10,423 bases of DNA from the IMG/VR virus record IMGVR_UViG_2534681835_000018; one strand, given 5' to 3'. Made by a program: the position numbers. This stretch comes from a virus (taxonomy: Duplodnaviria; Heunggongvirae; Uroviricota; Caudoviricetes). Below are positions 1-6,000 of this stretch, one piece after another (position 1 is the stretch's first letter; each line of letters begins with the position of its first letter).

Positions 1-3000
1 TGACACAGCCGCACTACATGGATATTTGCATGGCAATGATTCGTTGTGTGGATGCGATTTACATGCTGAATGGCTGGCAGCGGTCAGCGGGCGCTAAGGC
101 AGAGCTGGCACTGGCGGAGAGACTGGGGCATGCGGTGATTTATCAGGAGGTGGCTCAATGAGAGAGGTTAACTATGAGGCGCTTCGTGAGGCAGCACAAA
201 ACTATCAGTCGACGCTGGCGTGGTATCAGGCTACCCCGGACAGCCCAAATGCTGAACGGGATTGTGATGCGGCTCTTGCTGCGTTTAAGCGTCATATCCG
301 TCATCGGGAAGCGGATATTATCGCTGGTTTGCTGGATGGACTGGAAGAAGCAAAATCACAACTCAACGAGCAGCGTGAGTATTACGAAGGCGTTATCTCT
401 GATGGGAGCAAGCGTATTGCTGAACTGGATGCGCGGGAAGTTCAATTACCGACTCGCTACGACCTTCGATATGGACACCCGATAAATGCAGATGAGCGAC
501 ATGTCATGATACCTAAAGAAAATGGCAGTTGGCTTTACCTGATTGACCTAGAACACGCATTACGCGTCGCTGGCATTCGCATCAAAGGAGAGGAGCATGG
601 AAATAAAACCAGAGGATGAGTTAAGCAATATCGTTTTATTTCCGGTAAAAGAGGATGACCCTCGTAATCAGGTTAATTTTCTTTATGAGCCATCGGAAAG
701 ACCATATTGTCATCACGCCTCTGTCCGGGTTGACGAAAAAGAGCGTCAGGTCCGCTGTAAAATCTGCGGTGCAGTTGTGGAGCCATTTGACTGGATGCTC
801 TCTGTGGCGAAAAGAGAAACTAGGCTGGCAGATGATGTAAAGCTATTGCGCCAGGAGGAACAGGAAAGGCGGAAAAATATAGAAAAGTTAATTCAGATTG
901 AGCGTAACGCGAAAGCGCGGATACGCAGGGTGACAAAATCCAGAACTGAATAAATAAATTTAGCGCTGTAAATAAAATCTAATCCTTAACTGGAGGTGTA
1001 TTTATGTTAAATACACAGAAAGCCATTAATGCGGAAAAATATAACGAGTGGGCAAGAAAATTCTCTGAGCAGATTTTTAAAATTACTGGCGATGAGAATG
1101 CGGCAAAAAATGAATTAGAACCGTGGACGCCTGAAGGAGCCGACCCAAATTATTGCTGGAGGGAGGTTGATCCAGTTGATGCTGCAAATGAAGCTATGAG
1201 TTATCACAACGATTAATGTCAGGAGGCCGCCCGAAAGGGCGGTAATGAATGGTCACATTATTTAGAAAAATATCCGCGAAAGAGTAGAACAACAGAATTT
1301 CTGTTTCTCATTCTGTTTATCGTGTTGATGATACCGATATCCCCGTTAATCCTAGTCTGGATAATCGGAAAAATAATTGAGCCAGTTATTGAATTGTATA
1401 ACGACGTGGTATGGGCGTCATTCAACACACTGCACAATAAAATTAATCCGTATAAGGAAAACTGATATGGCAACTTTGACAAAAAAAGAACGGGCATGGT
1501 TGAACGAATTACAGGAAGTTCTTGATCGCTGTCCATCACCGAAAAAAATTGGCTTTTACACCATTGGCGATAAAAGCATTTACCTGTATGACCTACGCCG
1601 CATGGATGAAATCATGGAGGCTCTTGATAATCGTTCGTCGATGGATTGGTGTGTTGCTGTTCATGATATGAATGCAGGGTTTGATGAAAAGATTTTGTTC
1701 CCCTCATCAGTTGAAAGCACTGCGGGTTAAGGAGTAACACATGACCACTATTACCAAAGAACGTATTGAATTGTTCATTAAAAATCCGCTTGAAAACGGG
1801 CTTACCCGTGGTGAACAAATGGAACTGGCACGGATTGCGCTGGCATCGCTGGAAGCAGAGCCGGTGGCAAAGATTATAGCTCATTACCCATTAGGGGTTG
1901 ACGTAGGCAAACAAAAATTTGTACAGGCCATTAGAGAGCTTCCTGACTTTGGCGGATATCTATTTGCCGCCCCTCCAGCGCCGATAGTGCCGGAAGAAAT
2001 GTATTGGCAGGATGCGCCAGTTGAAGGCAGCAGCAAAGCGGCTGCATACGCTACAGGCTGGAACGATTGCCGCGAAGCCATGTTTCAGTCCGGAAACTTT
2101 CGGGAAAATAAAGATTCGTCAACCAATAATTTTCGGAAAATCCCGGAAGCGTCAACCAGCTCTCCGGTAACTCCGGCTCTTCTGCCTGGTGGTTTCACCA
2201 TTGAGGAGGCGAAGGAATTACATGAAGACCTGGCACGCAGCCACATAAGCAAGGCCTTAAGTGGCGAAATGAACCGCCCCGGGTTTCCTGGAGAGTGTTT
2301 TATCTGTGAACTCAGGCTGCCAGATCATCGTTTCCGATGGAAGCATAATAAGCTTTTTCTGCTTCTGCCGGAGGAGTATGGCCCAGCCTTCCCAGCAATC
2401 GTCGATTGTTATACCAGTCCACCCACGTTAGTGTGGCCAGTTCCACTTCTGCACGGTTTTTCCAGCTCTTACGGTGTATTACCTCCGCTTTGTAAAGACC
2501 ATTGATGCTCTCAGCCATCGCGTTGTCATACGAGTCGCCTGTACTCCCTGTTGATGCCAGTAATCCGGCTTCTTTTAGTCGCTCCGTATAGGCCAGTGAC
2601 ACATACTGAGAGCCTTTATCGCTGTGATGGATGGTGCCAGACGGACGACGGGCCCACAACGCCTGCTCCAGTGCATCCAGCACGAATGTCGTTTCCATAG
2701 ACGATGAGACTCGCCACCCCACGATACATCCGGCAAACACATCAATGATGAACGCCACATAGACGAAGCCCTGCCATGTGCTGACGTAAGTAAAATCAGC
2801 CACCCACAGCTGGTCAGGACGTTCTGCCACGAACTGACGGTTTACGCGGTCGCCTGCGGAAACGGCTTTCCGGCTGACGGTAGTACGGACCTTTTTACCC
2901 CGGAGAACACCGGCAAGTCCCATAACCGCCATGAGGCGCGCCACTGTACATCTGGCCACCCTGATACCTTCGCGTAACAACTGGCGCCAGACTTTACGCA

Positions 3001-6000
3001 CACCGTACACCTGATGATTTTCATCGTATACGCGCTGTATCTCTCTCTTCAGCCAGTCATCGCGCTGAGCACGGGCACTGCGTTTATCAGGATGATGTCG
3101 CTGTTGCTGACAGTGGTAATACGTTGACGGGGCAATATGCAGTTCACTGCATACCGGTCCGACCCCGTACTGCTCACGCAGCTTATCCAGCAGCGGCATT
3201 ATTTTTTCCAGAGGCGGTCGAACTCCGCCTTCGCAAAATAAGCGGAAGCCTGGCGAAGGATATCGTTACTGCGGCGCAGTTCACGATTTTCACGTTCCAG
3301 CTCTTTCAGACGCTGACGTTCAGCGCTGGTGAGCCCACCATCACCGCCCCCGGTATCCCGCTCATGCTGGCGAACCCAGACACGCAGAGTCTCCGGCGTA
3401 CAGCCAATCTTTGGGGCAATGGAACAAATTGCCGCCCACTGTGAGTCATATTCATCCTGACTTTCCAGAACCATACGAATCGCCCGCTGACGGACTTCGG
3501 GGGAAAAACGAGTATTTTTAGTCATCCTGTTTACCTCTTTCTCAGGGAGTTTAGTCTCCAGGATTTCCGGGGCGGTTCAAAAAGATGAAAAAGAAAGATC
3601 GCGATGCTGATTTGCGCTGGATTCATGGCGTTATAGTTCAGGCAGCGTGGTTTGTAAAAGCATCACTGGAGCAGAATGCACTATCGGGCAACTATCCGGT
3701 AACTCCGGATAGTTGGATAAGCTGTAGTGAGCGAATGCCGGATACCAAAACAGCCGTTCTTGTTGCCAGGGATTTTGGCAGGAAAGGTGACTGGCGAATG
3801 AAATGGGCGACTTACATCCCGGGGCATCCTGACGCTAATGATGGGTGGATAATACCTGGTGCGTCGTGGATACCATCACACTGGATGCCTCTACCAGAAC
3901 CGCCGCAGGAGGTGCGCCAATGAACTGGCCTGAAGCATTTGCAATTACAGGCGTTGCTATGGCTATCGCTTTTTTAGTATATGTTATTTGTCGGTGAGGG
4001 TAAAAACGTTCGCCGGGATTAACACCAAAGGAGGGAATATGTCGGATGATATATCACTGGCAATGGAAGGTGCGCTGGCTGTTGTTGCTGTTGTGGGCGT
4101 TTACTGCCTGGTTGTGTTTTTGATGGATCGACTAGGGAACTGAATTCATTACGATATGGGAATTCCCATATCGGGTAAAAACGGTTTGCGGTAAAGCGAG
4201 AGTTAAGTAGAATTGCTGCGGGTGCTTGAGGCTGTCTGCCTCGGGCATGCCACCGTAAGGCAGACAGAGAAAAGCCCCAGTTAACATTACGCGTCCTGCA
4301 AGACGCTTAACATTAATCTGAGGCCCAATCTATGCTTCACAAACGTAGGTTAGCCTCTTACGTGCCGAAAGGCAAGGAGAAGCAGGCTATGAAGCAGCAA
4401 AAGGCGATGTTAATCGCCCTGATCGTCATCTGTTTAACCGTCATAGTGACGGCACTGGTAACGAGGAAAGACCTCTGCGAGGTACGAGTCCGAACCGGCC
4501 AGACGGAGGTCGCTGTCTTCACAGCTTACGAACCTGAGGAGTAAGAGACCCGGCGGGGGAGAAATCCCTCGCCACCTCTGATGAATCAGGCATCCTCAAC
4601 GCACCCGCACTTAACCCGCTTCGGCGGGTTTTGTTTTTCCTGGCATTCTGGTTTACAATTCGCACGCCAGCCTGAACAACTGGCACCTGCTGCGCCAGCA
4701 GAGACAACCGATGGCGCACGATACCAAATTATACAATTCTGATGATTCTGCCGTCTTTGCCAGCAGGCGCGGACGGTGTTTTCACGCATTCAAATCTGAC
4801 TGGTACCAGCATCCCCCATGCACTGAAGAACAGGCCGAATGGCTCATTCAGTGTTACCGCAGGCGCGGATGCGAGGTTAAAAAAGCCCTTAGCCTCGACT
4901 ACCGTCACTGGATAATCTCCGTCAGGCTCCCTTACTCCGAACGGCCACCGCGTCCGTCCCGCACATTCTAGCAACGGATCTGGAGGTAATGTGCGGGTAT
5001 TACTTCGACCTGTTCTGGTACCGGAACTCGGTCTGGTTATCGTTAAGCCAGGCCGTGAATCCATGCGGGTATTTCATGGCGGCAGGGTGCTGGTGGAGTC
5101 TGAACCGAAAAGCATGCGTAATCTGCCGTCCGGGGTCGTTCCTGCCGTTCGCCAGCCGCTGGCGGAAGATAAATCATTACTGCCATTTTTCAGCAATGAG
5201 CGTGTGATTCGTGCTGCTGGTGGCGCTGGTGCACTGTCTGACTGGTTATTACGTCACGTTAAATCCTGCCAGTGGCCTCATGGTGATTATCATCACAGCG
5301 AAACTGTCATACATCGTTACGGTACCGGCGCGATGGTGTTGTGCTGGCACTGCGACAACCAGCTGCGCGACCAGACATCCGAATCACTTGAGCAACTTGC
5401 TCAACAAAACCTGTCAGCATGGATGATTGACGTCATCCGCCACGCAATGAATGGCATACAGGAACGGGAATTATCGCTGGCTGAATTATCCTGGTGGGCA
5501 GTCTGCAATCAGGTGGTGGACGCATTACCTGAGGCAGTATCGCGTCGTTCTCTGGGATTACCGGCGGAAAAAATCCGCTCCGTATACCGTGAAAGCGACA
5601 TCATACCGGGAGAACAGACCGCCACCAGCATACTGAAGCAGCGCACAAAAAATATTGCGCCACCGCCTCACACCCACCAGCAACAGAACCCACCACAGGA
5701 AAAGACGGTGGTCAGCATTGCCGTTGATCCGGAGTCTCCGGAATCCTTCATGAAACGACCTAAACGTCGCCGCTGGGTAAATGAGAAATACACACGCTGG
5801 GTAAAGACACAGCCGTGTGCGTGTTGTGGTAAGCCAGCGGACGATCCTCATCATCTGATTGGTCATGGTCAGGGTGGAATGGGAACAAAATCCCACGATA
5901 TTTTCACGCTACCGCTGTGTCGGGAGCATCACAACGAGCTTCATGCGGATCCGCTGGCGTTCGAAGAAAAGCATGGTTCCCAGGTTGATTTAATTTTTCG

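Follow-up and report, generated by a model that had tools for sequence, protein, structure and literature searches.

An IS629/IS1203-type element within a DUF551 gene of a defective lambdoid prophage in Escherichia coli O111:H8 strain 8E

The window analysed here, a 10,423-nt stretch of the IMG/VR virus record IMGVR_UViG_2534681835_000018 (Caudoviricetes), contains an insertion sequence with phage coding sequence on both sides, and the question is whether a single phage gene has been split at this place and what became of its two parts. The host prophage is lambdoid and adjoins yccA in the E. coli O111:H8 strain 8E. It is defective, with a frameshift in its integrase gene and no annotated gene for a terminase. 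The interrupted gene is one of the nin region, with the replication genes on one side and Q on the other. An IS629/IS1203-type element has almost certainly inserted in codon 176/177 of a 289-codon DUF551 gene of this prophage, and the gene is most likely inactivated. The event is genuine and unremarkable, and its kind is already known. Insertions of IS629/IS1203 in prophage genes are a well-documented cause of strain-to-strain polymorphism in EHEC, and RefSeq already shows the locus in 8E as an IS with pseudogene fragments on either side.

The inserted element is a complete IS3-family IS of the IS629/IS1203 type and probably an isoform of this group (positions 2270 to 3579, 1310 bp), whose transposase is encoded on the minus strand; a second copy in 8E is 100% identical to it. 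Its length falls within the range of about 1.2-1.5 kb that characterises the group. The terminal inverted repeats, IRR at the orfB-distal end (2270 to 2294) and IRL upstream of orfA (3555 to 3579), match in 22 of 25 positions, and the termini read TGAACC...GGTTCA (TG...CA). The initial annotation had delimited an IS629-like element by inverted repeats at exactly these bounds, and every coordinate proved correct. The orfA gene (3199 to 3525, minus strand) encodes a protein of 108 aa with an HTH_Tnp_1 domain (PF01527, 47.3 bits), and orfB (2312 to 3199, minus strand) one of 295 aa with an HTH_21 domain (PF13276, 65.5 bits) and the rve integrase core (PF00665, 93.6 bits); all three matches exceed the Pfam cut-offs. 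Moreover, an ALIL frameshift-stimulating pseudoknot (3128 to 3244, minus strand; RF01497) covers the TGGAAAAAATAATG slippery site and the overlap of orfA and orfB, with 120.9 bits against a gathering score of 50. A simulated -1 slip at this A6 run, TGGAAAAAATAATG, yields an intact OrfAB of 404 aa. It is predicted that orfB is expressed as this 404-aa OrfAB fusion through -1 frameshifting, and PGAP labels the element as 'IS3 family transposase, programmed frameshift'. Judged by its sequence, the inserted IS looks fully functional.

The element is also an uncommon version of its type. It shows 17 differences from an O111:H8 copy (98.7% identity) and 23 from an O157:H7 copy (98.2%), both of which are genomic copies named by PGAP as IS3-like element IS1203 family. 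For ISfinder, an isoform of IS629/IS1203 is an element whose nucleotide identity to the reference is 95% or more. A copy with at least 99% identity to the inserted IS was found in 13 of about 7000 matching records, and by its nucleotide sequence the inserted copy is a rare IS629/IS1203 variant. The second copy in 8E lies inside a sulfatase gene and carries its own 3-bp AAC duplication. As two identical copies are present in 8E, each with its own target duplication, the variant appears from sequence to have been active recently.

The insertion site can be reconstructed from genomes in which the element is absent. The triplet AAA stands on both sides of the IS (2267 to 2269 and 3580 to 3582), and a single copy is present at the empty site. 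In other genomes, this site reads GGCGAAAAGATG with four A's, while the window has three plus four; thus, exactly 3 bp were duplicated, which bears out the proposal that the two triplets are a target duplication. At two other IS copies, the target duplication is AAC/AAC. The 5' part of the disrupted gene (1741 to 2269, plus strand) comprises codons 1 to 176 and the first base of codon 177, corresponding to positions 1 to 529 of the intact 870-nt ORF (L001, other genomes). The 3' part (3583 to 3923, plus strand) runs from the rest of codon 177 to the stop and corresponds to positions 530 to 870. As had been suggested, removal of the IS together with one AAA gives a continuous ORF of 870 nt, in frame, which encodes 289 aa followed by a stop and matches the uninterrupted genomes.

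The empty allele is widespread. At least 80% of the 870 nt is present in one piece in 179 complete E. coli genomes, and all 40 listed matches are uninterrupted with 100% identity over 100% of the length. The listed genomes include O111:H- 11128 and O26:H11 11368, and the empty allele occurs across many serotypes (O26, O103, O111, O121, O55:H7 and others). The reconstructed protein is identical to the 289-aa P0003, a 'DUF551 domain-containing protein' present on at least 999 contigs. In the phage collection, no record with at least 80% of the disrupted gene was found; in Stx2a phages, positions 85 to 689 of the gene are present at 99.5% identity and unbroken over the insertion point. By contrast, a search of 5426 complete genomes found the two IS junctions in one alone, that of the O111:H8 strain 8E. 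Because the junctions are unique and an identical IS copy lies elsewhere in 8E, the insertion is recent and strain-specific.

The interrupted protein ends in a DUF551 domain (PF04448, 69 bits against a cut-off of 22), with residues 220 to 285 matching model positions 1 to 68 of 68. An AlphaFold2 model built from a 21-sequence alignment is confident for the N-terminal helices and the DUF551 domain only, the latter being predicted as a beta domain with a pLDDT of 85 to 93. The 5' part of the gene holds the N-terminal helices, a disordered middle region and the first helix of a conserved middle module, and the 3' part an in-frame ATG at 3585, the second helix of this module and the DUF551 domain. 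The PDB sequence search with the protein returned only chance-level matches (E > 0.1), the Foldseek search of the model against the PDB returned nothing at E <= 0.001, and PHROGs contains only 'unknown function' families for the gene. A dN/dS comparison of the ORF with the diverged allele L010 was not informative, as the differences cluster in a swapped N-terminal module.

A further question is whether the two parts belong to one gene. The two halves might be naturally separate, or the DUF551 part alone might be a gene, in which case the IS would have landed in a non-coding or fused pseudo-region. The deposited gene models, which disagree on the intact ORF (289 aa, 112 aa, or a 62-aa CDS with pseudo fragments), give some reason to consider this. 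For instance, in O26 11368 and O111 11128 PGAP/RefSeq annotates the intact 870 nt as a 62-aa DUF551 CDS accompanied only by two pseudo fragments, and many GenBank assemblies call the 112-aa part alone. Moreover, the family is highly mosaic, and the N-terminal, middle and DUF551 modules occur in separate combinations. However, the intact DNA has no stop over 289 codons, and ATG 1741 is preceded at 5 nt by a strong AAGGAG Shine-Dalgarno sequence (-8.7 kcal/mol), whereas none was found for the alternative start at 3735. The neighbouring genes lie close, 10 nt away upstream and overlapping in an ATGA downstream, and 289 aa is the commonest deposited model. The alignment to intact homologues that the initial annotation had proposed as a check revealed, besides the identical P0003, collinear full-length proteins (P0122, P0137, P0139, P0241) at 39-64% identity. 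In 12 diverse architectures that have the whole conserved middle module, this module runs through the insertion point unbroken and the motif SGEKMKKKDRDA is intact; the motif is also unbroken in the Stx2a phages. At the sequence level, neither two separate genes nor out-of-frame flanks were seen, the 112- or 62-aa pieces being calls of some RefSeq models. Two separate genes, or a DUF551 gene alone, are thus very improbable, and the collinear homologues support a single 289-codon gene at the intact locus. Could the occupied allele nevertheless be the ancestral one, from which the empty alleles arose by precise excision? An IS-excision enhancer, IEE, that stimulates the loss of IS629 is present in O111:H8 and other EHEC serotypes (PMC9943667, PMC9397093). 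However, many complete genomes of many serotypes have the empty allele, against one genome with the occupied allele, and the IS in this genome has an identical copy elsewhere in it. An origin by excision deserves next to no credence and is effectively already refuted by the allele distribution.

The fate of the C-terminal fragment is a separate matter. It had been suggested that an ATG 5 nt past the IS end might express the C-terminal domain alone, possibly by outward transcription from the IS. The ATG at 3585 is indeed in frame and corresponds to Met178 of the intact protein. The IS end places a GGGGCGG run before it, with an anti-SD pairing of -7.2 kcal/mol at 7-nt spacing, as compared to -3.0 kcal/mol and poor spacing before the Met178 codon at the empty site; real gene starts in the window have about -6 to -12 kcal/mol. 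This SD-like run leaves translation from read-through phage transcripts conceivable. A stand-alone 112-aa DUF551 protein could accordingly start at ATG 3585 with an IS-supplied SD, on a transcript reading through from the phage early operon or coming from the IS. According to the model, the fragment would retain the whole high-confidence DUF551 domain and one helix, and the short cluster representatives P0248, P0200 and P0175 start at or near Met178. However, a consensus scan of the plus strand from 1500 to 4100 found no sigma-70-like promoter, including near 3585, and the IS end adjoining the fragment is IRL, the transposase-proximal one, whose own promoter is directed the opposite way. In the IS3 family, an outward-facing -35 element lies in the IRR end. 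Outward transcription from the IS is thus not supported, and expression from the in-frame ATG and the G-run is speculative. In a read-through transcript, the ATG would be reached only after about 1.1 kb of antisense IS sequence that is not translated, a situation prone to Rho-dependent polarity, and the prophage, itself defective, has an early operon that is presumably repressed. Furthermore, the 112-aa calls are annotation choices within an open 289-codon ORF at 7 of the 8 loci checked, and for P0248 (104 aa, starting at Met178) no contig is on record. We regard a stand-alone 112-aa protein as unlikely, and the fuller version, in which the IS terminus accidentally provides a ribosome-binding site for Met178 and 8E makes the free DUF551 protein, perhaps along with a 254-aa chimera, from read-through, as slightly less likely still. 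If true, it would represent a natural case in which an IS splits the domains of a mosaic phage protein apart instead of plainly knocking it out.

The preferred reading remains simple inactivation of the gene. By analogy with other members of the IS3 family, the element would have moved by copy-out-paste-in via a circular intermediate, duplicated the 3-bp target AAA and split the conserved helical middle module of the protein. Two products could be left: a 254-aa chimera of 176 native residues with an IS-encoded tail and without DUF551, and a promoterless C-terminal ORF of 112 codons. The ORF for the former (1741 to 2505, plus strand) had been described as a chimera of phage and IS sequence, and it consists of 176 phage codons, a Met codon spanning the junction and 77 IS-antisense codons; when this exact product was looked up for other isolates, no other gene was on record. 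Most likely, the gene is simply inactivated and the insertion had little or no selective consequence, since the prophage was already defective. In principle, excision could restore the reading frame of the 870-nt ORF. As a strain-specific marker for the O111:H8 strain 8E, the insertion has little importance beyond bookkeeping. The intact 289-codon DUF551 gene, whose models are inconsistent across RefSeq and GenBank, merits harmonising.

IS629/IS1203 is the dominant IS of EHEC O157, O111 and O26. The inserted copy has in common with it the length of 1310 bp, the TG...CA ends and the imperfect inverted repeats of about 25 nt, the joining, here predicted, of orfA and orfB by -1 frameshifting at an A6 run with a stimulating ALIL pseudoknot, as well as the 3-bp target duplication and the location in a prophage. 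It differs from common copies in that all 17-23 differences are confined to IS positions 325-931, 5 amino acids of OrfAB are changed, and orfA ends in TAA where the common copies have TGA. The target duplication of IS629 is 3-4 bp, and 62% of the IS629 copies reside in prophages (PMC3271280). Inactivation by IS629 and IEE-mediated reversion are known, for instance, for lacZ in STEC O121:H19 (PMC9397093), where the same type of IS interrupts an ORF and is likewise flanked by short duplications. The interrupted protein shares a C-terminal DUF551 domain of 66 residues with other DUF551 phage proteins, such as YfdS of the E. coli prophage CPS-53, which has been linked to oxidative stress in the literature, and Ea22 V2 of Stx phages. 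As in Ea22 V2 (PMC10834534), DUF551 behaves as a portable unit at the C terminus of mosaic phage proteins from the early region. However, the N-terminal and middle modules of the disrupted protein differ from those of YfdS and Ea22, and its gene is located in the nin region and not in the exo-xis region.

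The DUF551 gene in the window is interrupted by an insertion sequence (IS) of 1310 bp (2270-3579) with the termini TG...CA and inverted repeats of 25 nt each (2270-2294, the right repeat IRR; 3555-3579, the left repeat IRL), which agree at 22 of 25 positions. Directly outside each end of the element lies the trinucleotide AAA (2267-2269 and 3580-3582). Removal of the IS and one AAA joins 1741-2269 to 3583-3923 in frame and gives 870 nt encoding 289 amino acids and a stop codon, with ...ALSGE-K-MKKKDRD... at the restored junction. If no base is removed from the right flank, an extra lysine codon appears, and the removal of 1, 2, 4 or 5 bases breaks the frame. 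Moreover, the empty site in E. coli O26 11368, GTGGCGAAAAGATG, has a single copy of the trinucleotide within four A's, as against 3+4 in the window, which proves the 3-bp duplication and excludes a chance match of the flanks. The ORF 1741-2505 (254 aa) is composed of 176 phage codons, an ATG spanning the junction and 77 codons that run antisense through the IS. All coordinates in the initial annotation, which had described the boundaries of the IS, its AAA flanks, the rejoined reading frame and the chimeric ORF, are therefore borne out.

The IS carries orfA (3525-3199, minus strand; 108 aa, HTH_Tnp_1) and orfB (3199-2312, minus strand; 295 aa, HTH_21 and rve), with all domains scoring above the Pfam cut-offs. 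The two genes overlap at TGGAAAAAATAATG, and when a -1 slip is simulated at the A-run, an uninterrupted OrfAB of 404 aa results. An ALIL frameshift pseudoknot was detected by Rfam at 3128-3244 on the minus strand (120.9 bits, gathering score 50), and the PGAP annotation of the source genome agrees with the IS features found here. The element has matches in thousands of E. coli records, amounting to 4251 of the 5426 complete genomes, at a median of 4 places in each. The IS shows 17 differences (98.7% identity) from an O111:H8 copy, which PGAP names 'IS3-like element IS1203 family', and 23 (98.2%) from an O157:H7 copy. IS1203 has been described as an isoform of IS629, which reportedly duplicates 3-4 bp upon insertion and has 62% of its copies in prophages or prophage-like elements (PMC3271280). 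Thus, the designation 'IS629-like' was right, and judged from sequence identity 'IS1203-type IS629 isoform' would be the more exact name.

The inserted element is a rare sequence variant: only 13 matching records, among them two O157:H7 genomes at 99.9%, contain copies that are at least 99% identical to it. All of the differences that separate it from the common IS1203/IS629 copies of O111 and O157 (17-23) cluster at IS positions 325-931, a pattern suggestive of a recombination patch. They cause five amino-acid changes in OrfAB and replace the orfA stop codon TGA by TAA. One of the copies at this level of identity is in strain 8E itself, from which the window derives: a second, 100% identical element (1501-2810 of the locus L003) lies within a sulfatase-like gene between two copies of the trinucleotide AAC, a 3-bp duplication of its own. 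Since the two elements in this strain do not differ and both retain an intact duplication, transposition there is likely to have been recent, and the variant has apparently been active recently.

The window corresponds with 100% identity over 10,423 bases to positions 3439578-3450001 (minus strand) of NZ_CP077465.1, the chromosome of E. coli O111:H8 strain 8E. The restored 870 nt are present without interruption, at 100% identity over 100% of the length, in all 40 complete E. coli genomes listed among the matches, and at least 80% of the sequence was found in one piece in 179 genomes. The empty site occurs in many serotypes, including O26:H11 11368, O111:H- 11128, O103, O121 and O55:H7, and the prophage segment of O111:H- 11128 is collinear with the window except for the IS. 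The 289-aa translation is identical to a 'DUF551 domain-containing protein' (P0003) on at least 999 contigs. By contrast, probes of 240 nt centred on the left and the right junction each matched, at a coverage of at least 80%, only strain 8E among the 5426 complete genomes, and the exact 254-aa chimera is on record in no other assembly; the insertion is thus private to 8E. In principle, an occupied site could also give rise to an empty one through the IS-excision enhancer (IEE), which occurs in O111:H8 (PMC9943667) and restored lacZ in O121:H19 (PMC9397093). However, many empty genomes of many serotypes stand against a single occupied one, and insertion in the 8E lineage is therefore the only reasonable direction. 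IEE might possibly revert the 8E site in the future.

Whether the interrupted ORF is one gene or two, the point on which the initial annotation had staked its interpretation, has to be judged with care because the annotations conflict (289, 112 or 62 aa). A view with two genes can draw on public models that give only a C-terminal CDS: in the current RefSeq, the intact 870 nt of O26 11368 and O111 11128 bear only a 62-aa DUF551 CDS together with two pseudo fragments marked 'incomplete', and many GenBank assemblies (313 collection blocks) have a 112-aa protein that begins at Met178. Many other records contain the 289-aa call. The intact allele lies at 2501-3370 in L001 and at about 2470-3339 in L009-L016. 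Of eight loci with the 112-aa call that were inspected, seven have an open reading frame that continues on the 5' side to all 289 or 295 codons. The eighth (L015, near 2993; GCA_021502855.1) has one extra nucleotide a few bases away from the IS target, so that no more than the 112-codon ORF stays open; the extra base may reflect an error in sequencing or assembly.

Several further observations favour a single gene. The intact DNA has no stop across 289 codons, and an AAGGAG Shine-Dalgarno (SD) sequence 5 nt upstream of the ATG at 1741 pairs with the anti-SD at -8.7 kcal/mol, whereas pairing is weaker at Met178 in the empty site (-3.0 kcal/mol) and at the ATG 3735 (-3.1 kcal/mol). The gene is tightly packed, with a gap of 10 nt on its 5' side and an ATGA stop/start overlap on its 3' side. 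Among 50%-identity cluster representatives there are collinear full-length homologues, namely P0122 (64% identity, residues 2-287), P0137 (51%), P0139 (48%) and P0241 (39%). Furthermore, the insertion point falls within the middle module PGGFTIEEAKELHEDL.RSHIS.ALSGEKMKKKDRDADLRWIHGVIVQAAWFVKASLEQ, which is highly conserved and is present as an unbroken whole in 12 different domain architectures and in Stx2a-converting phages at 99.5% DNA identity. The family is strongly mosaic, with N-terminal (about 1-145), middle (about 139-207) and DUF551 (about 208-288) modules in varied combinations, which probably explains the fragment calls by PGAP. Two relatives that are variants of this gene, P0001 (389 aa) and P0002 (395 aa), each known from one contig, outscore the self-match because about 100 residues are tandemly duplicated within them (repeated segments ELPDFGG...HEDLA and PEASTSS...SWISCS); either genuine recombination at the repeated PVTP motifs or faulty assembly could account for them.

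The 5' fragment would be translated into the 254-aa chimera lacking DUF551. For the 3' fragment, the initial annotation had considered that transcription leaving the IS might drive expression. This part is unsupported because a consensus scan of 1500-4100 found no sigma-70-like site on the plus strand and because of the orientation of the IS: the end adjoining the 3' fragment is IRL, 5' of orfA, and the promoter there is on the other strand and directed into the IS. In IS3-family elements, the outward-facing -35 element would be expected in IRR, and in the present orientation that end points away from the 3' fragment. Translation is harder to discount: some free DUF551 protein could be made from the in-frame ATG 3585, 5 nt beyond the IS and equal to Met178, should early phage transcripts extend across the 1.3 kb of antisense IS. 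In favour of this, within 3566-3587, GGGGCGG in the IS terminus, 7 nt before this ATG, has a predicted anti-SD pairing of -7.2 kcal/mol, which is within the range for real gene starts in the window, as compared with -3.0 kcal/mol at the same ATG of the uninterrupted gene. A weak terminator-like hairpin is present at 2279-2291. We regard such expression as improbable.

The window comprises the nin-to-late region of a lambdoid prophage, whose integration site adjoins yccA. The gene order is DUF977, DUF4406, several small ORFs, the disrupted gene, hokD/sok, DUF968, RusA, antiterminator Q, CPBP protease, HTH protein, tRNA-Ile/Arg/Arg and SASA esterase. The hok/sok type I toxin-antitoxin module (4220-4544; Rfam and annotation) consists of the sok antitoxin RNA (4220-4394; Rfam, 117.5 bits) and the annotated hokD (4389-4544), and after the three tRNA genes (9119-9365) comes a segment that strongly matches the sRNA family STnc100 (9445-9635; 138 bits). 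The interval 9119-9635 corresponds to the stx site of Stx phages; in 8E and 11128 alike, however, the stretch from the tRNAs to the SASA (NanS-p-like) esterase gene is devoid of stx. The 8E prophage is defective: its integrase is frameshifted (L008, the host prophage region; NZ_CP077465.1 3418000-3467000), and no terminase gene is annotated there from the lysozyme gene to the head-tail-joining and portal genes. In the matching segment of O111:H- 11128, Rz-like, PerC and YlcI genes, IS1203 and tccP2 come instead. Decay of the nin region is further evidenced by a frameshifted DUF4014 family pseudogene (PGAP; 1249-1465) just 5' of the disrupted gene in 8E, 11368 and 11128.

In summary, the observation is confirmed and its interpretation supported: in textbook fashion, an IS629/IS1203 element has inserted, with duplication of 3 bp, into an accessory gene that belongs to a defective prophage. 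The insertion is already annotated as such in 8E and is nothing new in kind; mildly useful by-products are the conflicting DUF551 gene models, the rare, apparently recently active IS variant and the accidental SD-like sequence before the C-terminal fragment. An AlphaFold2 model of the disrupted protein from 21 homologues (mean pLDDT 60.9) predicts with confidence the helices at the N terminus and the beta domain of DUF551 (pLDDT 85-93), with residues 41-147 disordered and the insertion point in a short predicted loop (174-179) between the helices 154-173 and 180-210. Solved structures gave no match by sequence or by fold, and the PHROGs families hit are of 'unknown function' only. In the literature, DUF551 is described as a portable domain with no known mechanism that occurs in YfdS of CPS-53 and in an Ea22 variant of Stx phages (PMC10834534, PMC4776307).
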